From contig JAIBBD010000003.1 in assembly GCA_019694855.1 (NCBI GenBank), positions 33,264 to 97,263 on the forward strand: 64,000 nt of DNA, read 5' to 3'. The notes beneath the pieces were generated by a model that worked only from the letters and a program-made list of their open reading frames with translations, was not told the DNA's origin and did no database searches. The translations under genes and the position numbers were made by a program. The DNA comes from Dehalococcoidia bacterium (GTDB lineage Bacteria > Chloroflexota > Dehalococcoidia > UBA2979). Shown piece by piece: positions 1 to 16,944 of this stretch (the first letter of the stretch is position 1; every line of letters begins with the position of its first letter).

Positions 1-636
1 GTGCAGCGGGATCGTCTGGCTGCCCCCGGCGACGATCGCCTTCAGCTTCTTCGAGCCCATGACCGCGCCGAGGCCCGAACGCGCGGCGGAACGCCCGATG
101 TCGTTCATAACGCCAGCCGTCAGGGACATCGTCTCGCCGGCGCGTCCGATCCAGGCGACCTCGAACTTCTTGCCGTAGCGCTCGCGAAGGACGCGCTCCG
201 GGTGGAGGTCGTCGCCCTGGTTCCAGATGTCGGCGGCGTCGTGCAGCGAAGCGACTCCGTTATCGATGAGGAGGTACACCGGGCGCTCCGAGATCCCTGT
301 GACGAAGACGCCGTCGTAGCCGGCGAACTTCAGCGACGGCCCGAAGGTGCCGCCGCAGTTGGCGTCACCCCAGGTGTTCGTCTTCGGCGACTTGCCAATC
401 GCCGTGAACCGGTTGCCGGTGACCGCGGACGTGCCCGTGAGCGGGCCCGTCACGATGCCAAACACGTTGTCCGGACCGAGCGGATCGGCGTTTGCGGGCA
501 TCCGGTCGTACAGCAGCCGGGCCGCCACCCCGTACCCGCCGACGTACTGCTCGTACATCTCGTCGGGCAGGCGCTCCTCGCGGATGTCACCGCTGGTGAG
601 GTCTACCCACAGGATCTTGCCCATGACGCCGAGCAT
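1..636 (-). CDS. Tungsten-containing aldehyde:ferredoxin oxidoreductase (AOR family) N-terminal part; gene runs off the left edge of the window
   Basis: Reverse-complement translation of 1-636 reads MLGVMGKILWVDLTSGDIREERLPDEMYEQYVGGYGVAARLLYD...GSKKLKAIVAGG, the characteristic AOR N-terminal domain (compare the second AOR at 7380-9270). No stop occurs in the window, so it is absent from the ORF track. The start was chosen at ATG 636 (alternative ATG 624). Confidence 0.7.
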   Translation of the reverse strand, partial: MLGVMGKILWVDLTSGDIREERLPDEMYEQYVGGYGVAARLLYDRMPANADPLGPDNVFGIVTGPLTGTSAVTGNRFTAIGKSPKTNTWGDANCGGTFGPSLKFAGYDGVFVTGISERPVYLLIDNGVASLHDAADIWNQGDDLHPERVLRERYGKKFEVAWIGRAGETMSLTAGVMNDIGRSAARSGLGAVMGSKKLKAIVAGGSQTIPLH

Positions 637-709: not shown

Positions 710-1741
710 TTATCGAGTCGTGTCGGGCAGCCAGTGCAGCCGCTCGATATCGACCGCGAGCGCCAGCATCGCCCCCGGCCGCAGTTCCCGCCCCGCGATG
801 TGGGCGGCGCCGACCTCGAAGGTCGCGGGGCCGCCGAGGTCGCACACAAGCTGGACGCGGCCTCCCGCGCCCCGGATCGAAAGCAGCGGCACGCGTGACG
901 CGCCCGGCTCGACGTCATCCGCGAGGCGGACGGCGCCCGGCGGCAGGTGCGCGAGGACGCCTCGAGCCTCGACCCTGGGGGCGAGGCAACGCACTTGCTC
1001 CGGCGTGAGCAGCGCGTGCCCGAGGAGACTCGCGACCTCTGCGGACCGCGGGTACTCGAGCACCTGGCGCGTCGGGCCATCCTGGACGAGACGACCTCCG
1101 ACGAGGACCGCGAGGCGGTCCGCCAGGAGCTCCGCCTCACCGCGGTCGTGCGTGGCGATGAGCGCCGTCACCGCCGAGGCGGCGAGCAGTTCACGCAGGT
1201 CGCCGACGAGCCGCGCCCGCGTCTCGAAGTCGAGCGATGCAAACGGCTCATCGAGGAATAGCAGCTCCGGGTCCACGGCGAAGGCCCGCGCGAGCGCGAT
1301 GCGTTGTGCCTCGCCGGCGGAGAGTGTGTGCGGCCGCGCGCCCGCGAGGTGGGCGACCCCCAGCCGCTCCAGCCAGCGCTCCGCCCTACGCCGGCGCTCG
1401 CTGCCAGACACGCCATGGATGCCCAGCGCGACTTCGACGTTCCCCCGCGCGGACATGTCGAGGAGCGTCGGGTCGGTGAAGACGCTGGCGGTGCGGCGGC
1501 GCAGGCGAGCGCGCTCGCCGCGTCCTCGTGGTCGCGCACCAAACAGCTGGACGCTGCCGGCCGCCGGCTCGATCAGCAGCGCGGCCGTCCGCAGCAGCGT
1601 GGACTTGCCCGACCCGTTCGGCCCGAGGAGCGCGACGGCCTCTCCCGCCGTTGCCACGAACTCCTCGACGACGAGGATGTCCCGCTTCCCGAGATGCACG
1701 CGCAGGCCATCGAGGCGGACAACCTCGGCCGGCGCCGTCAT
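710..1741 (-). CDS. tupC: Tungstate/molybdate ABC transporter ATP-binding protein with C-terminal TOBE-like domain
   Basis: Walker A GPNGSGKST, ABC signature LSAGEAQR, Walker B LLFLDEP. The start overlaps the tupB stop by 4 nt, and the gene sits in an operon with a permease and a TTTS-motif binding protein. Confidence 0.85.
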   Translation of the reverse strand: MTAPAEVVRLDGLRVHLGKRDILVVEEFVATAGEAVALLGPNGSGKSTLLRTAALLIEPAAGSVQLFGARPRGRGERARLRRRTASVFTDPTLLDMSARGNVEVALGIHGVSGSERRRRAERWLERLGVAHLAGARPHTLSAGEAQRIALARAFAVDPELLFLDEPFASLDFETRARLVGDLRELLAASAVTALIATHDRGEAELLADRLAVLVGGRLVQDGPTRQVLEYPRSAEVASLLGHALLTPEQVRCLAPRVEARGVLAHLPPGAVRLADDVEPGASRVPLLSIRGAGGRVQLVCDLGGPATFEVGAAHIAGRELRPGAMLALAVDIERLHWLPDTTR

Positions 1742-2436
1742 GCGCGCCGCATACGGTGCAGCGCCGCCGCCAGGACGACGGCGATCGCGAAGACGATGGC
1801 GAGCAGGATGAGCCCGAGTGCGAGCGCCGTCCCGAAGTTGCCCTTGCTCATCTCGAGTACGGAGGCCGTCGTGAGCACGCGCGTCTCGCCCGCCAGGTTG
1901 CCGCCGACCACGGTCGAAGCTCCTACCTCGGACACGACCGCGCCAAAGCCAGCCATCGTCGCCACGAGGAGCGGCAGGCGCGCCTCGCGAGCCACGAGCC
2001 AGAGGTAGCGCGCATCGCCGGCGCCCATGGCCCGGATCTGGAGGCGTAACGCGGGCGGCAGGGCCATCACGCCCGTGCTCGTCACGGCCACGATGACGGG
2101 TGTGGCGATCAACGACTGCGCGATCACCATCGCGCCGGGCGTGTAGATGAGCCCGAGTTGCCCCAGCGGGCCCGACCGCCAGAGCAGGATCGCGACCACG
2201 AGGCCGGCGACGACGGGCGGCATCCCCATCCCCGCATACGAGAACGCGACGAGGATCCGCTGCCCCGGGAACCGCCCGAGCGCGAGCAACAGTCCGATCG
2301 GCACCCCGATCAGCATTGAGATCAGAGTCGAGCTGCCGGTGATCGTGAGCGTCCGCCAGGCGATCCCGTAGACGTCGCCGTCACCGGTCCGAAGGAGCCG
2401 CCACGCCTCGCTGAACGCGTCGAAGATCAGGTCCAC
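1738..2436 (-). CDS. tupB: ABC transporter permease (tungstate/molybdate-type)
   Basis: 232-aa polytopic membrane protein with a BPD-transporter-like core, lying between the binding protein and the ATPase. Confidence 0.85.
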   Translation of the reverse strand: MDLIFDAFSEAWRLLRTGDGDVYGIAWRTLTITGSSTLISMLIGVPIGLLLALGRFPGQRILVAFSYAGMGMPPVVAGLVVAILLWRSGPLGQLGLIYTPGAMVIAQSLIATPVIVAVTSTGVMALPPALRLQIRAMGAGDARYLWLVAREARLPLLVATMAGFGAVVSEVGASTVVGGNLAGETRVLTTASVLEMSKGNFGTALALGLILLAIVFAIAVVLAAALHRMRRA

Positions 2437-2438
2437 GG

Positions 2439-3362
2439 TCAGTCAGGGTAGGGGATGAACAGCGAGACGCCGAACTTGTCCTTCCCGAACTCCCCGATCG
2501 TCTTCTGCGTGCTGCTCGCGAGGAGAAAGTCGCTGAAGCGACGGGCGGCCTTCACATGCAGCCCGTCGTGCTTCGCGGGGTTCACGACGATCACGTGGTA
2601 GACGTTGAAGAGCTTCGCGTCGCCTTCCACGAGGAGTGGCAACCGCTTCGGGTCGGCGGTCGCCAGCCACGTCGCGCGGTCGGTCAGCGTGTAGCCCTTG
2701 CGCTCCGCGGTGATCGTGAGCGTCGCCTCCATGCCCTGGCCGGTCTCGGTGTACCAGGACGCGCCCGTCGGCACCTTGAGGCCGGCCGCCGCCCACAGGT
2801 CCTTCTCGGCCGCATTCGTGCCGGAGTTGTCTCCCCGGCTGATGAACGAGGACTCAGTCCGTGCAATCGCGGCCATCGCCGCGGCGGCGTCCTTGCCCCC
2901 CTTGATGCCTGCCTTGTCCTCCGGCGTCCCGACGATGATGAAGTCGTTGTACATGACGCGTTTGCGCGACTCGCCGTTTCCGGCGGCCATGAACGTCTCT
3001 TCCGCCTTCGGCGAGTGCACGAGGAGGACGTCGGCGTCCCCGCGCTCCCCCATCTGCATCGCCGCGCCCGAGCCCACGGCGATCACCTTCACGTGGTCGC
3101 CCGTCGCGCGCTCGTACAGCGGGATCAACACGCCCAGGAGACCGGAATTGTCGGTGCTGGTGGTCGTCGCGAGGATCAGTTCCTCGCCGCCGGCCGGCGG
3201 CGTGGGGGACGCGGTGGCCGCCGCCGTCGCCGGCGCGGTACCTTGCTCCTCGGCGGCGGAGTCGTCGTCGCCGCAGGCTCCGAGGAGCAGGACCGCCAGC
3301 AGAGCGGCGGCGAGCAGACTGATGATGGACGAACGTCGCACGAGTTCCCCCTCCGAGCGCAT
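2439..3362 (-). CDS. tupA: Tungstate ABC transporter substrate-binding lipoprotein
   Basis: Lipoprotein signal LLLGAC followed by the anion-binding PBP fold. It contains the TTTS motif (ILATTTSTDNSGLL) regarded as diagnostic for TupA-type tungstate binders. The start was chosen at the MRSEGELV ATG (3362); the longer track ORF starts upstream. Confidence 0.8.
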   Translation of the reverse strand: MRSEGELVRRSSIISLLAAALLAVLLLGACGDDDSAAEEQGTAPATAAATASPTPPAGGEELILATTTSTDNSGLLGVLIPLYERATGDHVKVIAVGSGAAMQMGERGDADVLLVHSPKAEETFMAAGNGESRKRVMYNDFIIVGTPEDKAGIKGGKDAAAAMAAIARTESSFISRGDNSGTNAAEKDLWAAAGLKVPTGASWYTETGQGMEATLTITAERKGYTLTDRATWLATADPKRLPLLVEGDAKLFNVYHVIVVNPAKHDGLHVKAARRFSDFLLASSTQKTIGEFGKDKFGVSLFIPYPD

Positions 3363-3438
3363 TGCACGACGGGGCGACACGCTACCAGAGCCGGCGCCCA
3401 CGCGACAGGGGCGGCCTGGTCTGCGCATTTGTACGAAG

Positions 3439-3816
3439 GTGTGGGTGGAGCGCGACGACGGCATCGTCCTGATGAGCGAGTTCCGCGCCGACCTCCTCGA
3501 AGGCGTGGCGGCCGAGGGATCCGTGGCCGCGGCTGCGAGGACGCTCGGCCTCCCGAACCGCACCGCGTGGAAGAAGCTCGAAGAGATGGAACGGGCCGCC
3601 GGTGTGTCGCTCATCGATACGTCTTCCGGCGGAGCCCACGGCGGTGGCACGACGCTCACCGAGGCGGGCCGCGCGCTTGTGGAGGCCTACCGCCGGATCA
3701 GCGACCCGGTCTCGGCCGAGGTACAGGAACGCTTCGAAGCCGAGCGCGCGCTGTTCGAGCGGGAGACGGCGCCCTCCCCGCATCGGACGCCGGATCGCGC
3801 CGACGCGTCATCGTAA
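3439..3816 (+). CDS. ModE-like N-terminal winged-HTH molybdate/tungstate-responsive regulator (no TOBE domains)
   Basis: GSVAAAARTLGLPNRTAWKKLEEMERAAGVSLIDTSSGG matches the ModE N-terminal HTH region. The gene is divergent from tupA with a roughly 77-bp shared intergenic region. The start is uncertain (GTG 3439 or ATG 3472). Confidence 0.55.
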   Translation: MWVERDDGIVLMSEFRADLLEGVAAEGSVAAAARTLGLPNRTAWKKLEEMERAAGVSLIDTSSGGAHGGGTTLTEAGRALVEAYRRISDPVSAEVQERFEAERALFERETAPSPHRTPDRADASS

Positions 3817-3855
3817 GATCGGCTGCGTGCCGCACTCACCAGAGGCCCAGCGACG

Positions 3856-5139
3856 ATGAACGCTCACCTGCGTGACGTGCGCATGCGTGGTTTCGCCGAG
3901 CGCTCCGACGTCGAGGACGTGGAGCGATTCCTCCGCGCGCACACGGCGCCGCTCCCGGCGGAGGCCGTCGCGCTGCTCGATTGCGTCGGTCGCGTGCTCG
4001 CCGAGGACGTCGTTTCGACGGTCAATGTGCCGGGCTTCGTGCGCGCCGCGATGGACGGCTACGCCGTCCGCGGCGAGGACACGTTCGGCGCCAGCGCATA
4101 CGACACGATCGCGCTGCGCGTCCTCGGCCAATCGCTGCCCGGCAACCCGTTCCGAGGTCAGGTCGACGCTGGCGGAGCGGTACGCATCATGACCGGCGCA
4201 CCCCTGCCCGACGGTGCGGACGCGGTGATCATGGCCGAGGTCTGCCGCGAAGCCGGGGGCCTGGTCGAGGTCAGCGAGGCCGTGGCGCCTCGCCGCAACG
4301 TCGACGAGGTCGGCGAGGATGTTGCCCGCGGCCAGTTGCTGCTGCGTACCGGGCGGCGACTTCGCCCCCAGGACGCCGGCCTGCTTGCTTCGATCGGCCG
4401 GGGAGTTCTGACGTGCGTAGCGCGGCCGCGCGTGCAGCTGCTGATCACTGGAAACGAGTTGCTGCCTCCCGGAGCCGCGCCCGAGGGCCCGCACATCGTC
4501 GACAGCAACTCGGTCGTGCTGAGTGCGCTCGTCGCGCGTGATTCTGGGCACTTGCTCCCGGTATGCCGCCTCGCGGACGACCGCGAACGGATCCGGGCCG
4601 CGCTCGCCTCGTCCGAGGCAGACGTCATCCTCGTGTCCGGTGGCAGCTCCGTGGGCATGGAGGACTTCGCGCCGTCGCTGGTCGCGGAGCTCGGCACGCT
4701 CGACGTGCATGGCATCTCGATGCGGCCGTCGAGCCCGACCGGAATCGGCCGGCTCCCCGGCGACGGTGGGCGCGAGCGCCTCGTGTTCCTGCTCCCCGGC
4801 AACCCGGTGAGCTGCATGTGCGCCTACGAGTTTTTCGCCGGCCCCGCGATTCGTGCGCTCGGCGGCCGGCCCTGGAGCTGGCCGCACGCGCGCGTACGCC
4901 TGCCCCTCGCCCGCAAGATCGTCTCGCAGGTAGGCCGCACCGACTACGTTCGCGTGGCGATCGAGGGGGGTCGAGCCGTGCCGCTGGCGACCTCGGGCGC
5001 TTCGATCCTCTCGTCGACCGTCCGTGCGGACGGGGCGGTGATCGTGGAGCGCGGCCTCGAAGGGATGCCGGAGGGGGCGGAGGTCGAGGTGCTGCTGTAC
5101 GACGAGCCGGGCGAAACGCCCGCGTCCCGGGAACGCTGA
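3856..5139 (+). CDS. moeA: Molybdopterin molybdenum/tungsten-transferase MoeA
   Basis: 427-aa protein with full MoeA N, central and C-terminal domain signatures (PGFVRAAMDGYAV, GGSSVGMEDF). Confidence 0.9.
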   Translation: MNAHLRDVRMRGFAERSDVEDVERFLRAHTAPLPAEAVALLDCVGRVLAEDVVSTVNVPGFVRAAMDGYAVRGEDTFGASAYDTIALRVLGQSLPGNPFRGQVDAGGAVRIMTGAPLPDGADAVIMAEVCREAGGLVEVSEAVAPRRNVDEVGEDVARGQLLLRTGRRLRPQDAGLLASIGRGVLTCVARPRVQLLITGNELLPPGAAPEGPHIVDSNSVVLSALVARDSGHLLPVCRLADDRERIRAALASSEADVILVSGGSSVGMEDFAPSLVAELGTLDVHGISMRPSSPTGIGRLPGDGGRERLVFLLPGNPVSCMCAYEFFAGPAIRALGGRPWSWPHARVRLPLARKIVSQVGRTDYVRVAIEGGRAVPLATSGASILSSTVRADGAVIVERGLEGMPEGAEVEVLLYDEPGETPASRER

Positions 5140-7049
5140 TGGTGCAGCAGCAGTTCCTCGAGGTGCTCGACCGCGACGAGGCAGAAGCACGCTGGCACGC
5201 GGTGATCGCGCCCGCGGCCCTCGAACCCGAAGTCGTGCCGCTCGCGGACGCGCTCGGGCGTGTGCTCGCCGAAGACGTGCGCGCCGAGGTGGACGTGCCC
5301 GGGTTCGACCGCTCAAACATGGACGGCTTCGCGGTCCGCGCGCTCGATACGTATGGGGCGATGGAGGAGAAGCCCGTCCGCCTGCGCCTGAACGCCGAGG
5401 TGCTGCCCACCGGCGTCATCCCGGCCGTCGAGGTGGTCGACGGCTCTGCGACGACCATCGCCACCGGCGGCATGTTGCCTCGCGGCGCGGACGCGGTCGT
5501 CCCGGTTGAGCAGACCGACATCGAGGACGGCGGCGCGACGGTCGTCGCGCGCCGCCCGGTCGTGCCCGGGGAGAACATCTCCTTCGCCGGCACGGACATC
5601 GGCGCGGGCGAGACAGTGCTCTTCGCCGGGACGCGCCTCACCTCGAGGGACACGGGCGTCCTCGCCGCGATCGGGGCCGCCGAGGTGGCCGTCGTACGCC
5701 GGCCGCGCGTCGCCGTCATCTCCACCGGCGACGAGGTCGCGCAGCCCGGCGCCCCGATGCGCCCCGGCCTCGTGTTCGACAGCAACGGCCGGATCATCGC
5801 CGACGCCGTACGTGAGCTCGGCGGCGATCCCTGGTTCCTCGGGAGCTACCCGGACGACGAGGACGCCATCCGCGGCGCCGTCGAACGCGCCCTGGCCGAC
5901 GCCGACATGGTGCTGCTCTCAGGCGGGACCTCGAAGGGTGAGGGGGACCTCAACAGCCGCGTCGTCGGTGCGCTGACGCCCGGCATCGTCGTGCACGGGG
6001 TCGCGCTCAAGCCGGGCAAGCCGATCTGCCTCGCGGCGCAAGGCACGACGCCGGTCGTCGTGCTGCCCGGCTTCCCGACCTCGGCGGTGTTTACGTTCCA
6101 CGAGTTCGTCGCGCCCGTCATCCGGCGCATGGCGGGCGAAGGCGAGGCGCACCGCGAGTCGGTCCGCGCCCGTCTGGCGGTGAAGACCAACTCCGAGCGC
6201 GGACGGCTCGAGTACCTCCTCGTGGGCCTCGTCGAGGTGCCCGACGGCGAGCTGGCGGCGTACCCGATGGGGAAGGGCAGCGGCTCGGTCACCTCGTTCA
6301 GCCGCGCGGATGGGTTCATCCGCATCGAACGCAACGTGGAGCTACTCGATGAGGACACCGAGGTCGAGGTCCACTTGATCGGCCGTCAGCTCCCACTGGC
6401 GGACCTCGTCGTGATCGGGAGCCACTGCGTCGGGCTCGACCTCATCGCCAGCGAACTCTCACGCGAGGGCCTGCGCGTGAAGGTGCTCGCCGTGGGCAGC
6501 CAGGGTGGCCTCGCCGCCGCCCGCCGCGGCGAGTGCGACGCCGCTCCCATCCACCTGCTCGACCCGGCTACGGACACGTACAACGAGCCGTTCCTCGACC
6601 CGTCGCTGCGGCTACTCCCCGGCTACCGGCGGATGCAGGGCGTCGTCACGCGCTCCGGCGACGAGCGCGAGGTGACGGCCCTCCTCGACGACCCCGAGGT
6701 ACGCATGGTGAACCGCAATCGCGGCAGCGGGACGCGCATCCTCATCGACCAGCTCCTCGAAGGCCGACGACCTCCCGGGTACGCATACGAGCCACGCTCG
6801 CACTTCGCGGTCGCGGCGGCGGTAGCCCAGGGCCGCGCCGATTGGGGCGTGACAATCGAGACCGTCGCGCGCCAGGCGGGGCTCCGGTTCATCCCGTTGC
6901 GTCCAGAGCACTACGACCTCGCGGTGCCGGCCGGCCGCTGGGATCGGCCCGCCGTGCAGGCCTTGCGGCGCGTGCTCGATCGCCCATCGCTGCGCGCCCG
7001 CCTCGAGGCGATCGGCTTCGCCTCGCCGGACCCGCCCGAGGCGAGCTAA
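5139..7049 (+). CDS. Second MoeA paralog fused to a C-terminal PBP-like (molybdate/tungstate-binding-like) domain
   Basis: Starts at the ATG overlapping the moeA stop (TGATG). The N-terminal roughly 400 aa are MoeA-like (PGFDRSNMDGFAV...SGGTSKGEGD). The C-terminal roughly 230 aa resemble the PBP_like domain found fused to MoeA in archaea and some bacteria. Confidence 0.85.
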   Translation: MVQQQFLEVLDRDEAEARWHAVIAPAALEPEVVPLADALGRVLAEDVRAEVDVPGFDRSNMDGFAVRALDTYGAMEEKPVRLRLNAEVLPTGVIPAVEVVDGSATTIATGGMLPRGADAVVPVEQTDIEDGGATVVARRPVVPGENISFAGTDIGAGETVLFAGTRLTSRDTGVLAAIGAAEVAVVRRPRVAVISTGDEVAQPGAPMRPGLVFDSNGRIIADAVRELGGDPWFLGSYPDDEDAIRGAVERALADADMVLLSGGTSKGEGDLNSRVVGALTPGIVVHGVALKPGKPICLAAQGTTPVVVLPGFPTSAVFTFHEFVAPVIRRMAGEGEAHRESVRARLAVKTNSERGRLEYLLVGLVEVPDGELAAYPMGKGSGSVTSFSRADGFIRIERNVELLDEDTEVEVHLIGRQLPLADLVVIGSHCVGLDLIASELSREGLRVKVLAVGSQGGLAAARRGECDAAPIHLLDPATDTYNEPFLDPSLRLLPGYRRMQGVVTRSGDEREVTALLDDPEVRMVNRNRGSGTRILIDQLLEGRRPPGYAYEPRSHFAVAAAVAQGRADWGVTIETVARQAGLRFIPLRPEHYDLAVPAGRWDRPAVQALRRVLDRPSLRARLEAIGFASPDPPEAS

Positions 7050-7372
7050 CCGCCCGAGAACTGACCAAGCAGCGAGACCGTGTCCCCGGGCGCGAGGCGC
7101 GACCGGAGCGTGTGTGTGTCGCCGATCATCTTGTGGTTGACCAGCACGTGCAGGTTCTCGGTGATCGCGCCGTCGCGCTCCCAGAGCTGGGCGTGCAGCG
7201 CGGGGTGATGCTGACTGAAGCGGCGCAGCAGCGACTCCACGGAGTCGTCCGGCTCGAGGGCCTCACGAAACGCCACGCTGCCCGAGCCCGACCCTCCGAC
7301 CAGCCGGTTCACCCACGTCAGTACCTCGACGGTCACCTCGGAGCCGTCGAGGCGTGACTCGGCATCGCTCAT
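7046..7372 (-). CDS. MoaD/ThiS-like small sulfur-carrier-type protein ending in Gly-Gly
   Basis: 108-aa protein ending in ...LLGQFSGG, a beta-grasp-like length. It lies immediately downstream of the AOR gene, analogous to the MoaD-like AorE of the Aromatoleum aor operon. Confidence 0.7.
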   Translation of the reverse strand: MSDAESRLDGSEVTVEVLTWVNRLVGGSGSGSVAFREALEPDDSVESLLRRFSQHHPALHAQLWERDGAITENLHVLVNHKMIGDTHTLRSRLAPGDTVSLLGQFSGG

Positions 7373-7379
7373 GCGCGCC

Positions 7380-9270
7380 TCAGCCCCAGAGTTCCGCCTT
7401 CACCTCGGGCAGCGCGAGCCGGTCCAGGAGTTCGGGAAGGGGCCGACCGCTCTCGCGGTCGTACTCCACGAGCTCGTACCACGTGTCGAGCATGTGGTCC
7501 CAGTGCGGGGCGGTCGAGACGCCGGCGGCCGGACCGTCGACCGGCGTCGAGCCGTAACGTGCCGAGGGTCGCTCAAGTTCGGGGCCGATGCCGGAGCGAA
7601 GGTTGAAGGCACGCATGAGTGCCGCCGTCCGCCGTCCGAGGTACATCGCGTCGTCCTTGGTGTAGTTCCAGCCCGTCACGGCGCTCACCGCCTCGGCGAT
7701 CGCCGCGATCGTCGTGCTGGTCGTGAAGAAGCACGTCCCGATCGAGTCCTCGAAGTGCCGCCGCCCGAGGGTGAGCGCCACCTGCCGCGGCACGTCGTCC
7801 GGGCTCTGCACCTGCAGCGTCGCGGGCAGTCCGAGCTCCTGCGGGCGCGTCGGGCCCCCGCTCTCCAACGTCCCCGTGCTCGAGACGCACGTGTCGAGCA
7901 TCTCCGGCCACAACGCACGATGGTCGTGCCCGCGCGGGCTCGACCCCTTCATCGTGTACACGGCGCAGTCTTGTGCCGGCCCGCCGAGGTGTTCGGCGGC
8001 GCGCTTGATGCCCTCCGCCAGGACGTCCCCGAAGCCCTGCCGCGTGCAGAGCATCTGCAGCAGCTCGTACGCCGCATCAGCGTCGCCCCAGACGGCCTGG
8101 ATGCCGCCGAGGTCCTGCCTCGTCAGGTACTCCTTCTCGTAGCACTCCATGACCCAGCCGATGACCCAGCCGAATTCGTTCACGTCGACGCCGGCACGGT
8201 CGCACTGGGTGTTCATCCAGGACACCTTGGTGCGGTCGGTGCACCCCCATGCCCAGCCGGCGCCTACCCAGCCCTCGTACTCGGGCTCATCGACCACGTC
8301 ACCGGCATGGACGCCGTCGCGGATCACCTGCATGTGGCAGTGATGCATGCCGCAGGCGTTGCACTGGTGGCCGCGGTGGTCGAAGCCCTCGCGCAGCTCC
8401 ATCGGCTCCCACTTCGACATGTCCGCCTCGGCGGGCAGGATGTTCGTCGTGAGGTTCTTGATCGGCAGGCCGCCCACAGGCGCGAGGCCCGTCACGCCCC
8501 CGAGCGTGCCGATGAGGTAGAAGTTCTGCCCCGGCAGCTCAGTGCGCATCTGGTACGCGATGTCGTCGGCCGTGCGGAACACGCCTCGAGGGTCGGCCAC
8601 GTAGATGCCGCGGTTGCCACGCACGATGGCGACCGCCTTCACGCGCTTCGAGCCCATCACGGCCCCGCAGCCGTTCTTGCTCGCGACGTGGCCGTAGTCG
8701 CCCTGGATCCCCGCGAAGCGGATCAGGTTCTCGCCGGACGGGCCGATGCTGTAGACGGAGAGCTGGTGACCGCTGAGGCCGAGCTCCTCGTACAGGTGGT
8801 CCTGCGTCTCCCACGTGTCGAGGCCGAGGAGATGCGAGGCGTCGCGCAGCTCGGCGGTGCCGTTGTGGATGTACAGGTAGACCCACTGGTCGGAGCGGCC
8901 CTGGAAGACGATGCCGTCGAAGCCCGACGACTTGATGTTCGCCCCGAAGAAGCCGTTCGCCTGCGTGCTGGTCGCGCCGCCGGTAATCGCGCCCTTCGTG
9001 ACGACGCTCAGGCCGCCTGAGCCCCACGTCGGCGTGCCCGCGAGCGGGCCGGTCGCGAGGATGAGACGGTTCTCGGGGTCGTTCCACTGCACATCCGCTC
9101 CGACCTCGTCGTAGAGGATGCGGGCGCCCATGCCGGTGCCACCGACGTAGCTGCGGGCGAACTCGTCGTCGATGGGCTGTTCCCACAGGCGGCCGGTCGT
9201 GAGGTCGACGCGCAGCAGTGCGCCCGCGTACCCGGCCGGCTGATTCCGCTTCTTCTCTGTGACGAGCATT
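7380..9270 (-). CDS. Tungsten-containing aldehyde oxidoreductase, AOR family (AorB-like catalytic subunit)
   Basis: About 630 aa from ATG 9270 (MLVTEKKRNQ...). N-terminal AOR domain (LLRVDLTTG..., GSKRVKAVAIVRG), a Cys-rich FeS/pterin region and the C-terminal AOR domains. The track ORF extends 120 aa further upstream as an Arg-rich artefact. Confidence 0.9.
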
Positions 9271-9304
9271 TGATGTGCCTTTCGCTCGCTGCGCCGTGGG
9301 CGCG

Positions 9305-10684
9305 CTAGACCTCGGTCTGGGCCGCCAGTGCGGCCGCTTCCGGCGACACCCAGCGGGCCGCGTTGACCTCGTCCGCCGGCGTCGAGGGCCGGCCGAGGAC
9401 GGTCTCCTGCAGCAGCCGCCCCACGTGCCCGGTGGCGACGAATGGCCGCTTCAGCTCCCACGGGTTGTCCATCATCGCGCGTTTCCACGCGCCCATCGGC
9501 TGTCCGTCCTGCACCAGCCCCTTGAGGATGCCGACGTCGTTCGTCGCCCACAGGTGTTCGCTGATGCCGATGATGATTGCGCCGGTCATCGCCTCGCCCT
9601 GGCCGTGCCACAGCAACCGCCGGTACGCCCACTGCGAGGGCTTCTCGACAGCCACGCTCTCGGCGTCAGCGTCGTCCCATAGGCCGAAGCTCGCGATCTC
9701 GAGGTCGAGCACGTCGACGATGTTCATGAGCACGGTTCCGCGGTGCGCGCGGTCGACGCCGGCCATGTTCGCGCCCGCGATGCGGCCGTGCTCCATGGCG
9801 GCGGGTTCGATGGCGTGCAGCGCGCGCTGGCCCGTCACCCGGTCGAACGCCTCGGCCACGTCGCCGGCGGCGTACACGTTCGGGGCGCTCGTGCGCATGT
9901 GGTCGTCCACGAGGATGCCGCGCCCCATCTCGAGGCCAGCGCCCTCGAGCCAGCCGAGGTTCGGACGGATGCCCGTCGCCATGATCACGACGTCGGCGCT
10001 CAATTCGCCGCCCCCGTCGAGGACGAGCCGCTTCCGTCCGGCGACCTCCTCGATCGCGTTCAATCGCACGCCGGTTTGGACGGTGACGCCGTGCTGCTCC
10101 AGCCAGCGTGTAACGATCGCGGCGCCGTTGGGGTCGATCATCCGAGGCAGGATCGTCGGTGCGAGCTCAATCACGGTGAGCCGCACGCCGAGCTTCACCA
10201 GCGAATTGAGGATCGTGAACGAGATGAACCCCGCTCCCACCAGTACGACCTCGGAGCCAGCTTTCACCTCCGCGATGAGGCCGTCCGCCTGCTCGAGCGT
10301 CCAGAACGAATGCACGCCCGGCAGGTCGGCGCCCGGCACCGGGGCCCGCACCGCCGATGAGCCAGTCGCGATCAGCAGGTCGTCGTAGTCGACTGTCTCG
10401 CCGTTATCGAGCGTGACGCGCTGCTGCGCCGTGTCGAGGGCCGTCGCGCGCCGCCCGATCTGCGTGGTCACCCCCAGTGCGGCGAGGCGGTCCGGAGACA
10501 GCGTCCATACGTGCGACCTCGAAATGCGCTTGCCGAGGTAGTACGGCAGCACCATGCGCGAGTAGGGGCGCTCCTCGGCGACCAGGACGATGTCGGACGC
10601 GCCCTGGTCGAACTCCCGGATCGAGGTGATCGCGTTGATGGCGGCCGTGCCGCCGCCGACGATGACATGTCGCTTAGCGGCCAT
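9305..10684 (-). CDS. FAD/NAD(P)-binding pyridine-nucleotide-disulfide-family oxidoreductase (AorC-like)
   Basis: Start MAAKRHVIVGGGTAAINA (Rossmann GxGxxA), a second dinucleotide fold VVLVGAGFISF, and the FAD motif AAGDVA. Confidence 0.85.
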   Translation of the reverse strand: MAAKRHVIVGGGTAAINAITSIREFDQGASDIVLVAEERPYSRMVLPYYLGKRISRSHVWTLSPDRLAALGVTTQIGRRATALDTAQQRVTLDNGETVDYDDLLIATGSSAVRAPVPGADLPGVHSFWTLEQADGLIAEVKAGSEVVLVGAGFISFTILNSLVKLGVRLTVIELAPTILPRMIDPNGAAIVTRWLEQHGVTVQTGVRLNAIEEVAGRKRLVLDGGGELSADVVIMATGIRPNLGWLEGAGLEMGRGILVDDHMRTSAPNVYAAGDVAEAFDRVTGQRALHAIEPAAMEHGRIAGANMAGVDRAHRGTVLMNIVDVLDLEIASFGLWDDADAESVAVEKPSQWAYRRLLWHGQGEAMTGAIIIGISEHLWATNDVGILKGLVQDGQPMGAWKRAMMDNPWELKRPFVATGHVGRLLQETVLGRPSTPADEVNAARWVSPEAAALAAQTEV

Positions 10685-11162
10685 TCGTCGCCCCGATCCG
10701 CGCGAGGTCGGCGGCCGACCGTTGCGCCGCGAAGGCGCCCGTCCAGTCCTGCGTGAAGTCCTCGATCCAGGTAATCGCCTGAGTCGGGCAGGCGTGCGCA
10801 CACTGCGGGTCGCCGCCGCACAGGTTGCACTTGAACGCCTTCTCACGTTCGGGGTCGTAGAAGATCGTCCCGTACGGGCACGCGAGGGTGCACAGCTTGC
10901 ACCCTACGCACTGGTCGTCCTGCACTTCCTTCGCTCCGACCGCCGAGATGTCGATCGCCTCGACCGGGCAGGCGGTCATGCACCACCCCTCGGCGCACTG
11001 GAAGCAGGTATAGGGCGAGAAGCTCGTGTGTCCTCGCTCGAACGCGCTCACACGAATCACGGACTTCGAGGGGTTGAATTCACCGCTCTGCACGTAGGAG
11101 CAGGCCACCTCGCAGCGCAGGCAGCCGGTGCATTTCTCCGGCTCGATATGCAGGACTTTCAC
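10674..11162 (-). CDS. Poly-ferredoxin electron-transfer subunit with four [4Fe-4S] motifs (AorA-like)
   Basis: 162-aa protein with four Cys clusters (CTGCLRCEVAC, CFQCAEGWCMTACP, CVGCKLCTLACP, CNLCGGDPQCAHACP). It overlaps the downstream FAD subunit start by 11 nt. Confidence 0.85.
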   Translation of the reverse strand: MKVLHIEPEKCTGCLRCEVACSYVQSGEFNPSKSVIRVSAFERGHTSFSPYTCFQCAEGWCMTACPVEAIDISAVGAKEVQDDQCVGCKLCTLACPYGTIFYDPEREKAFKCNLCGGDPQCAHACPTQAITWIEDFTQDWTGAFAAQRSAADLARIGATNGR

Positions 11163-11410: not shown

Positions 11411-12484
11411 GTGAAGATCGAGACCGGCTTCGGGGAGACCTGGCTCGGGGAAGTGCCCGCGCGCGTGCGCGCCGCGGAAGCGGCGGGCTTCGACTCGATC
11501 AGCACGCCAGAGATGCGGCACAACTCCATCCTCGAGCTCACGCTCGCTGCCGAACACACCGAGCGGATGGAGCTCTGCACGGGCGTCACGATCGCATTCC
11601 CACGCTCCCCGATGGTCATGGCGCAGTCCGCGTGGGACCTGCAGCAGTTCAGCAAAGGGCGCATCAACATCGGCCTCGGTTCGCAGGTCAAGGGCCACAA
11701 CATCCGGCGCTTCGGCGGCACCTGGTCGCCCCCCGCGCGCCGCATGGAAGAGTACGTCACGATGATGCGGGCCATCTGGCGCTCCTGGCAGTTCGGCGAG
11801 CGCCCCGAGTTCGTTGGCGAGGACTACCGCTACCTGCTCATGACCCCCGCCTTCAACCCCGGCCCGATTGATTACCCGTTCCCGAAGATATCGATCGCCA
11901 GCGTCGGCCCGAAGATGGCCGAGGTCGCCGGCGCCGTCGGCGACGGGCTCCGGCCCCACGGCTTCATGACCGAGAAGTACATGCGGCAGACCGTCCTGCC
12001 CGCCCTCGAGAAAGGCGCGCGGCGCGCCGGGCGCTCCCTCGCCGACATCGAGGTCTCGGTCGGCGGGTTCAGCGCCTTTGGCGAGACCCAGGCCGAGGTC
12101 GAGCAGGCGATCGACGCCCTCCGCCGTCCGATCTCCTTCTACGGCTCGACCCGTACCTACCACGTCGTATTCCAGGCCCACGGGCTCGAGGCGCTCGGGA
12201 TGCGCCTGCACGAACTCTCGCTGCGAGGCGAGTGGGACAAGATGCTCGACGCCGTGACCTTCGAGCACGCCGCCGAGATGGCCAATGCCTGCACCTACGA
12301 CGATCTGCCGCAGTACGCCCGCGAGCACTTCGAGTACGCCACCCGCCTCCGGCTCCCCTTCGGCGACGATCACGCCGCCGGTCGCTACGGCGGCTCCTCG
12401 GACGCCGAAGGGTCGGCCCCGTCGATGAGCCGCGAGCGACTCGACTGGCTGATCAAAGAGCTCCACACGGTCGGAGCGGAATGA
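11411..12484 (+). CDS. LLM-class (luciferase-like) flavin/F420-dependent oxidoreductase
   Basis: 357-aa TIM-barrel LLM family protein. GTG start preceded by a GAAGGGA Shine-Dalgarno sequence. Confidence 0.8.
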   Translation: MKIETGFGETWLGEVPARVRAAEAAGFDSISTPEMRHNSILELTLAAEHTERMELCTGVTIAFPRSPMVMAQSAWDLQQFSKGRINIGLGSQVKGHNIRRFGGTWSPPARRMEEYVTMMRAIWRSWQFGERPEFVGEDYRYLLMTPAFNPGPIDYPFPKISIASVGPKMAEVAGAVGDGLRPHGFMTEKYMRQTVLPALEKGARRAGRSLADIEVSVGGFSAFGETQAEVEQAIDALRRPISFYGSTRTYHVVFQAHGLEALGMRLHELSLRGEWDKMLDAVTFEHAAEMANACTYDDLPQYAREHFEYATRLRLPFGDDHAAGRYGGSSDAEGSAPSMSRERLDWLIKELHTVGAE

Positions 12485-12875
12485 CGCCCGGAGACGGAGG
12501 AGCATTCGGCCCTTGCGAGGGCTGCCGCGCCTTCCGTCTCTGAGGTAAGATTACCGCCGTTATTGGACGGCTGCTTCCGCCGAGGCTCCCCGCGAGGCGA
12601 CTGGCCGGTCGCCGGCGAGCCTGCCGATCGAGCCAGCAACGGAGGTGCCGCACCCGTCAGGAGCCCCGCGAGGACGTTTTCGTCGAAGCGACGCACGACG
12701 ACCGCCCCGTTTCAGGCTCGACGGGTGTACAACATCTCCGATGGCGAGCGCGCCCGCTCTTCGCGGCCCGCTCGCACCGCGTCCAGTGCACAGGAGATGG
12801 CGACGTCCGGTTGGAAGGAGGCTGACTGGGAGATCACATCCTGCTCACCCGTCGACGATAGTTTGGAGAATCGAA

Positions 12876-13286
12876 TTGCCGAAACAGTCACCGATTCCTG
12901 ACGAGCTGGACAAGCCGTTCTACGACGCCTGCAACGAGGAACGCCTCGTCGTCCAGTACTGCCCCGCCTGCAGCCGGTACCAGTTCCCGCCGCGAAACGC
13001 CTGCGGTGGCTGCCTCAACCCCGGCATCCAGTGGAAGCAGGTGAGCGGGCGCGGCCGGATCCAGAGCCGCGTGGTCGTCTACGACACCCCGGTTTCCGTG
13101 CTCATCCCGGACCAGCCCTTCAACGTCGCCACCATCGCCCTGGAGGAAGAGCCCGAGATCATCATGCTCTCCCACCTTCCCGGCACTCCGGTTGAACAGG
13201 TCCCGATCGGTGCGCAGGTCGAGGTGATCTTCGAGACCACCCCCGCCACCGGCCAGAAGATCCCCGAGTGGAGGGTCGTCAGCTAG
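12876..13286 (+). CDS. DUF35 OB-fold/Zn-ribbon protein (partner of SCP-x-type thiolase-like proteins)
   Basis: Zn-ribbon CPACSRYQFPPRNACGGC followed by an OB-fold. TTG start with an upstream GGAGA. The track ORF begins further upstream in Arg-rich sequence. Confidence 0.65.
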   Translation: MPKQSPIPDELDKPFYDACNEERLVVQYCPACSRYQFPPRNACGGCLNPGIQWKQVSGRGRIQSRVVVYDTPVSVLIPDQPFNVATIALEEEPEIIMLSHLPGTPVEQVPIGAQVEVIFETTPATGQKIPEWRVVS

Positions 13287-13333
13287 CCGGCGGACGTCAC
13301 GCCGCCAGGGACACGCGAAAGGACACCTGACCC

Positions 13334-14665
13334 ATGGCATCACATCCGATGACCCCCAACAGCTGGCACCGGAACCGCGAAGGTCTCGGTATCTGGCACG
13401 GCCGCGGCAAGGTCGCCGCGACGGGTGTCGGCACCTCGCCCACCGCCCGCCGCTGGGACGAGAAGCCCGAGACCAGCATGGGCGCCCTCACCCTCATCGC
13501 CATCCGCAAGGCGATCGAGGACGCGGGCATCTCCCCCTCCGAGATCGACGGCATCGTCATCACGCCTGAGTCCACGACCGGCGTCAGCAACGACCCCAAC
13601 ACCCCGCCCCCGGAAGGCTGGGACCAGGTCTTCAAGATGGTCGACTACCCGCAGGCCGGCATCACCCGCGGCGACATCGACTGGATCCTCGTCAACATGC
13701 CTGAACTGACCAACGTGCAGTTCAAGATGGAGGGTCGCGGCTGCATGTCCGTCTCCTTCACCACGGCGGCCGAGGCCGTCGCGCGTGGGCTGACGCACAC
13801 CTGCCTCGTCATCCGCGGCTGGCACAACCTCGCCGGGCGCTACTACGTCGGCCAGGGCGCGGCTGCCGGTGACACCCTCGCCGGCCCGCAGAAGTACGCA
13901 GGCCTCTGGGGCGCCCCGGCGTGCGCTGGCACGGCGATGATCTTCGAGGAGTACTGCAACAAGTACGGCAAGAACCACGACATGATGGCCCCGTTCATCG
14001 TGGAGCAGCGCAAGAACGGCCTCATGAACCCGGACGGGTTCTACAGCCAGCACCGCCCCGAGATGATCACGGTCGAGGACTACCTCTCCGGGCGCTGGAT
14101 CGCCAAGCCGGCCAACATCTACGACAACGACCTCCCGATTCAGGCTGCCCTCGCGGTCATCATGACCACCGCCGAGCGGGCCAAGAACCACCGGCCGAAG
14201 CCGGCCTACGTCCTGACCCACGCCCAGACCCGTCCCGAGAGCCAGGGCGTCACGCCCACCCTCGAGTCGTGGGAGCGGCTCAGCGACAAGATGGGCCGCA
14301 TGCTCTTCGAGGGCGCTGGCATCGGTCCCGATGACCTCGACTTCGAGAACATGTACGACGGCTTCACGCTGTTCCACCAGTTCCACCTGGAGGGCCTGCG
14401 CTTCGGTGCCAACGGCGAAAAGGGCCGTGGCTACGCGCTCGACCTCTACCAGGAGGACATCAGCATCACGGGCCCGAACCCCGTTTCGCCGAGCGGCGGC
14501 AACAACGGCAACGGGCGCACGCGATTCTGGAACCACCGCGACAGCATCCTGCAGGTCCAGGGGCGGTCGCCGTCCCAGATCTCGAAGCCGGCCAACATCG
14601 GCGTCTCGGGCTCGCACATGCCGCACATGTGTGACTCCCTGATCTGGAGCTCCAGCCCCGACTAG
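13334..14665 (+). CDS. Thiolase-like (SCP-x/nonspecific lipid-transfer-type) protein
   Basis: 443-aa thiolase-fold protein. ATG start with an AAAGGA Shine-Dalgarno sequence, located directly downstream of the DUF35 gene (classic pair). Confidence 0.8.
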   Translation: MASHPMTPNSWHRNREGLGIWHGRGKVAATGVGTSPTARRWDEKPETSMGALTLIAIRKAIEDAGISPSEIDGIVITPESTTGVSNDPNTPPPEGWDQVFKMVDYPQAGITRGDIDWILVNMPELTNVQFKMEGRGCMSVSFTTAAEAVARGLTHTCLVIRGWHNLAGRYYVGQGAAAGDTLAGPQKYAGLWGAPACAGTAMIFEEYCNKYGKNHDMMAPFIVEQRKNGLMNPDGFYSQHRPEMITVEDYLSGRWIAKPANIYDNDLPIQAALAVIMTTAERAKNHRPKPAYVLTHAQTRPESQGVTPTLESWERLSDKMGRMLFEGAGIGPDDLDFENMYDGFTLFHQFHLEGLRFGANGEKGRGYALDLYQEDISITGPNPVSPSGGNNGNGRTRFWNHRDSILQVQGRSPSQISKPANIGVSGSHMPHMCDSLIWSSSPD

Positions 14666-16157: not shown

Positions 16158-16880
16158 TCATACGACGAGGTCCGCTCGCACGACCAGACGCTGGTCGTAG
16201 GCATGCGCGGCCGCGCTGAACGTGCCAGCGCACGTGATCAGCGTCGCCGTCGCCGAAGTTGTCGGGCCGAGGATCTCCCCGACCGGCGCGGTCGCTTCGT
16301 CGTAGGCCGCGACCCACGCCACGCGATACTCGAACGTCGTGCCGTCGTCGAGCCGCACGAGGAACGTATCGCCTGCGCGCAGCTCGCGCAGCCGGTAGAA
16401 CACCGCCGGCCCGTAGTTCGCGAAGTCCACATGCCCCGCGAGCACGAAGTTCCCGTCCTCGCCCGGCGGCGCCGCGAAGGCATACGACGCCACCTCCAGG
16501 GGCCCCGAAGGAGCGGGCATCGTTCCGTCGGCACGCAGACCCAGCGTCACGATCGGCGCATCCACCCCGATCCGAGGTACCACCAGCCGTCCGCCGCCTC
16601 TGGTGGGCGCCGCGGCGCCCACGGCCGCACTCGCGGCACTCGACGAGATCAGCGGCAGCCCGCTCGGTGTGGCGCTGGCAATCGCCGTTCCAGTCGGGGT
16701 CCCGGTGGCCGCTGCGGCCGTGGCCGCGCCGGCCACCGTCACCAGCTCGGGCGTCGAAACCACCGTCGCCACGGTCGCTGCCCTTTCGTTGCCGTCCTCG
16801 CTGGACGAACCGGACCACGACACGCTCGAGATCACGAGCATGACGAGTGCGGTGACCAGCGCGATTCTCAGGACATGCAC
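16158..16880 (-). CDS. Sortase family transpeptidase (class E/F-like)
   Basis: N-terminal TM segment, LVVPRIGVDAPIV, catalytic His in GHVDF, and catalytic Cys in TLITCAG. It follows the LPNTG protein gene. Confidence 0.8.
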   Translation of the reverse strand: MHVLRIALVTALVMLVISSVSWSGSSSEDGNERAATVATVVSTPELVTVAGAATAAAATGTPTGTAIASATPSGLPLISSSAASAAVGAAAPTRGGGRLVVPRIGVDAPIVTLGLRADGTMPAPSGPLEVASYAFAAPPGEDGNFVLAGHVDFANYGPAVFYRLRELRAGDTFLVRLDDGTTFEYRVAWVAAYDEATAPVGEILGPTTSATATLITCAGTFSAAAHAYDQRLVVRADLVV

Positions 16881-16944
16881 CTGGTGCCCCTCGGTACGAC
16901 GAGGAGTGGAGGAGCACTCACTCCCCCACTCCTTCGTCGATGAC

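Follow-up and report, generated by a model that had tools for sequence, protein, structure and literature searches.

A Predicted AorABC-like Tungsten Oxidoreductase Operon with a Divergent Catalytic Subunit in a Dehalococcoidia Bacterium

Does a tightly packed block of four genes in a Dehalococcoidia bacterium encode a tungsten-dependent, NAD-linked aldehyde oxidoreductase (AOR) like AorABC of Aromatoleum aromaticum, and does its catalytic subunit belong to the same lineage as that of AorABC? AorABC draws interest for its acid reduction, its H2-driven regeneration of NADH, and its protein-nanowire structure. The block lies at positions 7046-11162, on the minus strand, of a 64,000-nucleotide stretch of contig JAIBBD010000003.1 (assembly GCA_019694855.1, positions 33,264 to 97,263), referred to here as the window. 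An original prediction, made from the sequence without database searches, had described it as a complete operon of the AorABC type. The reading that best explains the present data, to which a probability of about 0.7 is given, is a single operon that would encode a cytoplasmic three-subunit tungstopterin oxidoreductase, AorABC-like and of Class III among the tungsten oxidoreductases (WORs), together with a cofactor-maturation protein.

The four-gene block and its electron-transfer module

All four open reading frames are present where the original prediction had placed them, packed closely on one strand, and on two public contigs of this organism an independent gene caller gave identical products of 162, 459, 629, and 108 amino acids (aa). 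The genes, listed from upstream to downstream, are as follows.

10674-11162, minus strand: S, a WorS/AorA-like polyferredoxin (162 aa, GTG start, four [4Fe-4S] motifs)
9305-10684, minus strand: N, a WorN/AorC-like FAD-dependent NAD(H) oxidoreductase (459 aa, ATG start)
7380-9269, minus strand: L, a WorL tungstopterin catalytic subunit of a distinct clade (629 aa, AFOR_N and AFOR_C domains)
7046-7372, minus strand: X, or WorX, a MoaD/ThiS/SAMP1-like beta-grasp protein (108 aa, Gly-Gly end)

The ATG of N lies inside the last codons of S, which produces an 11-nt overlap with the S stop codon, and the distances from the N stop to the L start and from the L stop to the X start are 35 and 7 nt, respectively. 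A GA-rich stretch is found 5' of the GTG start of S, in a window with a G+C content of ∼70%. A sequence scan of 7046-11162 revealed no promoter- or terminator-like site above shuffled expectation, and an Rfam scan of the window returned zero families at gathering score, the Moco/Wco riboswitch included. The match to BjrC68, a small RNA of Bradyrhizobiaceae, at 10536-10619 on the minus strand scored 25 bits (gathering score, 39), falls within the coding region of N, and is almost certainly due to chance. As judged from their arrangement, S, N, L, and X form one real operon.

The composition of the block, an iron-sulfur protein, an FAD protein, a tungsten AOR subunit, and a MoaD-like protein with a Gly-Gly end, is that of AorABC, and domain and profile searches agree with what had been proposed on this point. 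In the recent classification of WORs, Class III comprises WorL, WorS, and WorN, accounts for 179 sequences in 9 of 92 WOR clades, and has AorABC (AaAOR) as its only characterised member; the ThiS-like accessory protein is there termed WorX (Putumbaka et al. 2026, PMC13328260). The sequence features that define Class III were all found here, namely a two-domain WorL, an adjacent four-cluster WorS, and an adjacent FAD/NAD(P) WorN that is not of the ThiS/ThiF type. Assignment to Class IV or Class V was rejected, given that the genes annotated near the operon and in the remainder of the window include no HydABC-like WorABC and that S lacks a Tat signal. The operon would thus have a Class III architecture with an added WorX, and because of the overlap of the S and N genes, the synteny described below, and the homology to AorA and AorC, its three main products are predicted to form a single NAD+-reducing complex.

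S was matched by several Fer4 (4Fe-4S) families of Pfam, and its 16 cysteines are arranged in four motifs (residues 11/14/17/21, 53/56/61/65, 85/88/91/95, and 112/115/121/125), all of them invariant or nearly so across 35 homologs. Its top match in the PDB is AorA (8c0z_C), with an E value of 1.6e-50 and 56% identity, the runner-up having an E value of 3.8e-29. The N terminus, MKVLHIEPEKC, contains no twin-arginine leader. At the other end of the protein, the segment D139-W140-T-G-A-F-A-A-Q-R aligns with D-W-T-G-L-A-R-M-Q-A-W-A-A of AorA; the pattern DW[LVT]GxFAAxR is kept at the C terminus of S in 63 orthologs, and the aligned AorA helix reads DWTGLARMQAWAA. In AorA the last ∼20 residues make up a helix, without which (truncation after D137) no Aor(AB)nC filaments form, and the segment was stated to be conserved only within the AOR_Aa subclade (PMC10413684). 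Since S carries the C-terminal segment by which AorA polymerises, the complex probably takes the form (LS)n with a single N as its cap, a “nanowire.” Many S orthologs are named “carbon-monoxide dehydrogenase iron sulfur subunit” or “hydrogenase component 2” in the JGI annotation, and these names are probably misleading because the WOR context is conserved. Several metagenome clusters of S orthologs, defined at 90% identity, have hundreds of member sequences each.

N contains a Pyr_redox_2 domain (184.7 bits) and no ThiS domain according to Pfam. The top match in the PDB is AorC (8c0z_E; 3e-78, 37% identity), followed by a runner-up at 1.8e-43, with NADH oxidases and CoA-disulfide reductase (CoADR) also among the matches, and the best NCBIfam match is PadH at 253 bits against a cut-off of 475. 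AorA and AorC being the best solved-structure matches of S and N, the likeness to AorABC that the original prediction had drawn is upheld for this pair. The motifs of N were compared over 64 orthologs and AorC. They include GGGTAA for FAD, GAGFI...LTVIE for the NAD Rossmann fold, in which a glutamate follows the second beta strand, and AAGDVAE; in PYSRMVLPYYL, methionine occupies the redox-cysteine position of the NADH-oxidase/CoADR family, exactly as in AorC. An acidic residue at that point of the Rossmann fold is associated with a preference for NAD over NADP.

X matched the Pfam family ThiS at 23.1 bits, just above the cut-off of 22.5, and scored below the NCBIfam cut-offs for SAMP1 (34.7 versus 60) and moaD_arch (28.8 versus 49.5); its product name at NCBI is “MoaD/ThiS family protein.” The C terminus ends in ...GQFSGG, and the Gly-Gly end is kept in at least 64 of 70 orthologs. 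An AlphaFold2 (AF2) model, which was good (mean predicted local distance difference test score (pLDDT) of 84.3) even though the underlying alignment was shallow, with 11 close relatives obtained from a word-indexed search, displays the beta-grasp fold that had been anticipated for this protein. Foldseek matched the model to SAMP1 (3po0; E value of 5.5e-7, TM score of 0.87 normalised to the target), mycobacterial MoaD (6jbz_B), CysO, and Urm1. X is a putative sulfur carrier in the maturation of the pterin cofactor and is unlikely to be a subunit of the enzyme. The operon of A. aromaticum encodes aorA (FeS), aorB (tungsten), aorC (FAD), aorD, and aorE, of which the MoaD-like products AorD and AorE are absent from the purified enzyme (PMC6365974).

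The catalytic subunit and its clade

Pfam searches assigned AFOR_N (PF02730, 217 bits) and AFOR_C (PF01314, 253 bits) to L. Against solved structures, L scored 274 bits with the large subunit of Acetomicrobium mobile WOR1 (AmWOR1-L), 273 bits with the Pyrococcus furiosus AOR (PfAOR), and 247 bits with AorB, and the corresponding identities were 34, 31, and 32%, with 29% for the AOR of C. autoethanogenum (CaAOR) and 28% for FOR. The four references that represent AOR sensu stricto (AorB, PfAOR, AmWOR1-L, and CaAOR) are 45-56% identical to one another. PfAOR and FOR share 39% identity, such that L is more distant from PfAOR than FOR is.

A tree of L and its relatives was built by the neighbor-joining (NJ) distance method with five references, sequences transcribed from HMMER alignments, rooting on FOR, and 100 bootstraps. 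The L clade was monophyletic in 100 of 100 bootstraps, and the four AOR references were monophyletic, to the exclusion of the L clade, likewise in 100 of 100. The original prediction had implied that the catalytic subunit belongs with AorB, and this part of it did not hold: L is no closer than 29-34% to any of the AOR references, and the L clade grouped with AorB in 0 of 100 bootstraps. A grouping with the monomeric archaeal AORs, which had been named as the result that would speak against the prediction, was not observed either, L standing outside in 100 of 100 NJ bootstraps. On these distances, L is a separate, uncharacterised lineage that belongs neither to the AorB clade nor to the monomeric archaeal AORs.

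The relationships of the small and large subunits are incongruent. S and AorA share 56% identity, compared with 42% for AorA and AmWorS (9mqx_E), whereas L and AorB share 32%, compared with 54% for AorB and AmWorL. This pattern, a lead drawn from few references, suggests either that the FeS/FAD module (S, perhaps with N) was exchanged between WorL lineages or that L has diverged rapidly.

Active-site residues of L were mapped with HMMER profile and MAFFT alignments, which were in agreement, over 120 clade members. The ligands of the [4Fe-4S] cluster are C303, C306, and C513, the third in order is probably C311, and there is a one-residue insertion in the invariant motif HRGHQCNACGMHHCH; all four cysteines are conserved in the clade. 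In PfAOR numbering, with the L residue in brackets, L retains Thr243 (T255), Glu311 (E330), Tyr312 (Y331), and Glu313 (E332), as well as the DSxGxC pterin motif. From the second shell, made up of Thr243, Glu313, Tyr427, and His448, the L clade keeps the threonine and the glutamate only, and Tyr452 is also lost in L. A 13-sequence clade alignment contained no invariant cysteine between C311 and D357, and an enzyme of the BamB/YdhV type, which has a further conserved cysteine ligand, located after the FeS motif and before the first aspartate that binds pterin, was rejected.

Clade-specific peptide patterns recovered L-clade WorL from at least 273 species-representative genomes, the best 80 of which were examined. 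All 80 are metagenome-assembled genomes, their L proteins are 58-69% identical to L, and the hosts include Methylomirabilota/Rokubacteria/NC10, Tectomicrobia/Entotheonella, Nitrospinota, Binatia, and SAR324, among others. Synteny was assessed by scanning six-frame open reading frames around L with the proteins of the window, loci being counted only where enough flanking sequence was available. In 61 of 68 loci, S and N immediately preceded L, in 65 of 70 X lay downstream, and the complete order S-N-L-X was present in 53 of 61 informative genomes from several phyla, with median envelope gaps along the block of 2, 32, and 39 nt. The arrangement is not due to chance. Because the block is complete in 53 of 61 genomes, S-N-L-X is the norm of the L clade and not a peculiarity of one genome, the four genes constitute a conserved unit, and the departure from the AorABC gene order that had been pointed out is real and clade-wide.

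No other flanking family occurred in more than 22 of the 80 loci. The commonest of these neighbours (an EamA-type transporter, an amidase, serine hydroxymethyltransferase, and a CoA-transferase) were rejected as clues to the substrate, as they track one closely related group of genomes. Six loci of SAR324/Lambdaproteobacteria type carry L and X with no S or N upstream, and the L clade therefore also has, as far as gene content indicates, a Class I-like form. In four of these six loci, the upstream neighbour resembles a divergently transcribed MiaA-type tRNA isopentenyltransferase, by its N-terminal sequence only. A search of the literature on AOR in Rokubacteria, Entotheonella, Nitrospinota, or Dehalococcoidia yielded only community-survey papers.

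The surroundings of the operon

The following features lie downstream of X, toward the left edge of the window.

5139-7049, plus strand: MoeA-PBP fusion (636 aa; MoeA_N, MoCF_biosynth, MoeA_C, and PBP_like domains; PRK14498 at 751.9 bits against a cut-off of 534)
3856-5139, plus strand: MoeA paralog (427 aa; MoeA families at 288-335 bits)
3445-3816, plus strand: helix-turn-helix (HTH) regulator resembling the N-terminal domain of ModE (123 aa; HTH_1; ModE_repress at 68 bits against 98.5)
2439-3341, minus strand: TupA-like lipoprotein (300 aa; TupA, the sole NCBIfam match, at 234.7 bits against a cut-off of 400)
1738-2436, minus strand: TupB-like permease (TupB at 146.7 bits, below the NCBIfam cut-off)
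710-1741, minus strand: ABC ATPase of a TupABC-type transporter
1-636, minus strand: second WOR large subunit, of which the first 212 aa are present, cut at the window edge; downstream of tupABC

The gene for the MoeA-PBP fusion converges on worX with a 4-nt overlap (7046-7049), and its product, in which a PBP-like oxyanion-binding domain is joined to MoeA, would insert metal into the pterin. TupA is recognised by a TTTS motif and by the context of Arg118 (PMC5517513), and the TupA-like protein contains both, as LILATTTSTDNSG (the TTTS motif) and FISRGDNSGT (the Arg118 context). As a whole, the island at 710-7049 looks like a tungsten supply system, comprising a TupABC-type transporter, a ModE-like regulator, MoeA, and the MoeA-PBP fusion.

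The second WOR large subunit is complete on the ENA contig (L082, 4907-6781), where it measures 624 aa, with identities of 31% to L and 32-35% to the AOR references. A ThiS-like open reading frame of its own, 73 aa long and ending in GIAGG, comes after it (L082, 4594-4815, outside the window). This second large subunit looks like a Class I WOR with a WorX and, by its sequence, like a member of yet another clade. Further left on the same contig, also outside the window (L082, 1-4249), are genes for an integrase (rve), a D12-class methyltransferase, ParB_N, and a TerL-nuclease, which may be the remnant of a prophage or mobile element.

On the other side, divergent from worS on the plus strand (11411-14665), are genes for an F420-dependent LLM oxidoreductase (TIGR03617, 334 bits, above cut-off), a DUF35 zinc-ribbon/OB protein, and an SCP-x-type thiolase-like protein, and these neighbours are not conserved in other operon-bearing lineages. 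The window from 15 to 64 kb holds genes for arginine biosynthesis, PPDK-like genes, enoyl-CoA hydratases, and a sortase with a giant surface protein; MoeB/ThiF, MoaE, and MoaA were looked for among its annotated genes, and none was found. The sortase gene lies on the minus strand (16158-22566) beside that for the surface protein of ∼1645 aa, which has VWA, CARDB, and CLIPPER domains.

Alternative readings and comparison with known systems

According to the preferred reading, that of an AorABC-like Class III enzyme, a substrate, probably an aldehyde, would be oxidised at the tungsten-bis-pyranopterin of L, and electrons would travel from the [4Fe-4S] cluster of L along the four [4Fe-4S] clusters in S and on to the FAD of N, which would pass them to NAD+. 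A filament of the form (LS)nN is possible. X would act as a MoaD-like sulfur carrier that helps to build or insert the pterin cofactor, and the adjacent tupABC, ModE-like, and two moeA genes would provide for tungstate supply and insertion.

A number of observations weigh against this reading. L is only 29-34% identical to characterised AORs and falls outside the AOR sensu stricto clade. The position of PfAOR Tyr427 is His (H448 in L) in 120 of 120 clade members, and that of His448 (E469 in L) is Glu in 92, Asp in 20, and Gln in 8 of the 120. The pterin-phosphate contacts are altered as well, Arg182 being replaced by His in 120 of 120, Arg76 by Gly in 117 of 120, and Lys450 by Thr or Ser in most. 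The scores for TupA, ModE, SAMP1/MoaD, and PadH are all under the curated NCBIfam cut-offs, and the annotated genes of the window include no MoeB/ThiF or MoaE that could partner X. The AF2 model of S, in which residues 142-160 form a helix at a pLDDT of 53-66, is too poor overall (pLDDT of 44) to confirm the C-terminal helix; given its low confidence, the model was left out of the fold search, and the helix was weighed as weak support only. L and X occur without S and N in the six SAR324/Lambdaproteobacteria-type loci. Finally, none of the best 80 L-clade genomes comes from a cultured organism, for which reason the clade has no biochemical anchor.

The substitutions bear most directly on the substrate. 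Glu313, His448, and Tyr427 are universally conserved among known AORs, and changes at these positions have been tied to altered function: WOR5/ASOR, which oxidises sulfonates, has His for Tyr together with Tyr for Arg, and the inactive WOR4 has Trp for Tyr, although aldehyde oxidation tolerates the Tyr-to-His change by itself in the AOR of C. formicoaceticum (PMC12096430). Because L has His for Tyr427 and Glu, Asp, or Gln for His448 across its clade, an aldehyde, while the most likely substrate, is uncertain and clearly less secure than it would be for an ortholog of AorB. The prediction of an NAD-linked aldehyde/acid enzyme accordingly stands as regards the AorABC-like architecture and is weakened as regards the aldehyde/acid substrate, since L lacks two of the four second-shell residues common to the characterised aldehyde-oxidising members.

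The same changes lend some weight to a different reading, in which the architecture and the electron path are as proposed but L has been re-tooled for a substrate or chemistry other than that of simple aldehydes, with NAD(H) as acceptor or donor depending on the couple. There are precedents in the gain of sulfonate oxidation by WOR5/ASOR and of ring reduction by BamB; the replacement of Tyr427, His448, and Arg182, with the loss of Tyr452, affects exactly the positions tied to new or lost activities in ASOR and WOR4 (PMC12096430), and L shares less identity with PfAOR (31%) than FOR does (39%). Even so, a re-tooled L is considered unlikely, if by no means far-fetched, in view of the retention of Thr243, Glu311, Tyr312, and Glu313, the compatibility of Tyr to His alone with aldehyde oxidation in C. 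formicoaceticum, and the absence of the invariant extra cysteine of BamB/YdhV between the FeS motif and the D338 equivalent. The characterised WORs with S-type partners, BamB excepted, also all oxidise aldehydes, and conserved catabolic genes that would hint at another substrate are lacking from the neighbourhood. The broader proposal that the L clade carries out a reaction other than ordinary aldehyde oxidation, or holds a differently tuned cofactor, and that it acquired an AorA/AorC-type FeS-FAD module, possibly nanowire-forming, by exchange, is put forward tentatively, as the less probable course of events.

An enzyme that uses molybdenum, as proposed for the YdhV clade, could be served by the same MoeA, ModE-like, and MoaD-like genes, and it would fit the TupA and TupB scores below the NCBIfam equivalog cut-offs and the pterin-phosphate contacts of L, which differ from those of the tungsten AORs. 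This is nonetheless improbable when set against a binding protein whose sole NCBIfam match is TupA and which has the TupA-specific TTTS and SRGDNSGT motifs, a transporter flanked by two WOR genes, an L subunit without the YdhV/BamB-type cysteine ligand, and the presence of tungsten in every characterised WOR except the YdhV clade and one recombinant GAPOR (PMC12096430). Least probable of all, and very much so, is that N is an unrelated enzyme of the NADH oxidase or CoADR type beside a two-subunit, ferredoxin-linked Class II WOR formed by L and S. Membership of N in the broad Pyr_redox_2 superfamily, its matches to NADH oxidases and CoADR, and the L-clade members that lack S and N would be expected on that account, but the start of N overlaps the stop of S, N sits between S and L and keeps this position in 61 of 68 genomes, its redox cysteine is replaced by methionine exactly as in AorC, and AorC outscores the next PDB match by 35 orders of magnitude. 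The co-conservation of S, N, and X with L means that the objection of a generic NADH oxidase, raised in the original prediction itself, does not apply.

If the preferred reading is correct, the operon represents a second, phylogenetically separate lineage in which the wire-and-cap module is paired with a different catalytic subunit, and if module exchange took place, the polyferredoxin-FAD “wire and cap” would amount to a cassette that can be moved between different tungsten catalysts. The L clade amounts to a natural experiment on which second-shell residues aldehyde oxidation requires, and S offers a test of the AorA C-terminal helix as a predictor of filaments beyond the AorB clade. Soil, groundwater, sponge-symbiont, and marine metagenomes contain the lineage in abundance, and its host phyla (Methylomirabilota, Tectomicrobia, Nitrospinota, and Dehalococcoidia) include many organisms that are not strict anaerobes. 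More oxygen-tolerant NAD-linked tungsten catalysts might be obtained from it. TupABC together with two WORs points to tungsten use in lineages where it is rarely considered.

Among known systems, PfAOR (1AOR, Class I) has the same AFOR_N/AFOR_C fold, FeS cysteines, Thr243, Glu311, Tyr312, Glu313, and DxxGxC motif as L. It differs in being a ferredoxin-linked homodimer of the single-subunit type, and its Tyr427, His448, Tyr452, Arg76, and Arg182 are not kept in the L clade. WOR5/ASOR of P. furiosus (6X6U, Class II), a heterodimer of L and S, resembles the present system in these subunits, in the second-shell change of Tyr to His, and in the replacement of Arg at the R182 equivalent; unlike it, WOR5 has no FAD subunit, keeps the catalytic His469, and lacks the Thr, and it is a remoter match, at 177 bits for L and 39% identity for S. 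The L and S protomer with five [4Fe-4S] clusters is shared with WOR1 of A. mobile and Eubacterium limosum (Class IV, WorLS plus WorABC; PDB 9MQX), which forms an LS nanowire (PMC12318220), a property that is only predicted from the genes here. No PDB entry scores higher against L than AmWOR1-L (34% identity, 1.8e-80), whereas S is 40% identical to AmWorS and 56% to AorA, and the electron-bifurcating, HydABC-like WorABC plug of WOR1 is replaced by a single FAD subunit.

An FeS-to-FAD-to-NAD output module is also found in PadH and PadI of the NADH-dependent phenylglyoxylate dehydrogenase (NF045765 and NF045766), and S matches the N-terminal polyferredoxin part of PadI at 92 bits (cut-off, 700); in that system the module serves a catalytic enzyme of the 2-oxoacid:ferredoxin-oxidoreductase type and not a WOR. 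The closest counterpart is AorABC of A. aromaticum EbN1 (PDB 8C0Z), in which a polyferredoxin with four [4Fe-4S] clusters is combined with a tungstopterin subunit containing one [4Fe-4S] cluster and an FAD/NAD subunit, a MoaD-like accessory gene is present in the operon, and, as here, the absence of a Tat signal is consistent with a cytoplasmic enzyme. Identity to AorA is 56% for S, which also has the DWxG at the start of the filament helix, and N, with an identical set of motifs, shares 37% identity with AorC. The two systems differ in gene order, S-N-L-X as opposed to A(S)-B(L)-C(N)-D-E, with one MoaD-like gene in place of two; in the active site, where Tyr443 and His464 of AorB (Tyr427 and His448 of PfAOR) are His and Glu in L; and in their hosts, denitrifying Betaproteobacteria for AorABC as opposed to uncultured Dehalococcoidia, Methylomirabilota, Tectomicrobia, and Nitrospinota. 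The architecture is thus known and catalogued, and the operon is not a categorically new system; its novelty lies in the L clade, with a gene order and a changed second shell of its own, and in the apparent modular reuse of AorA/AorC.

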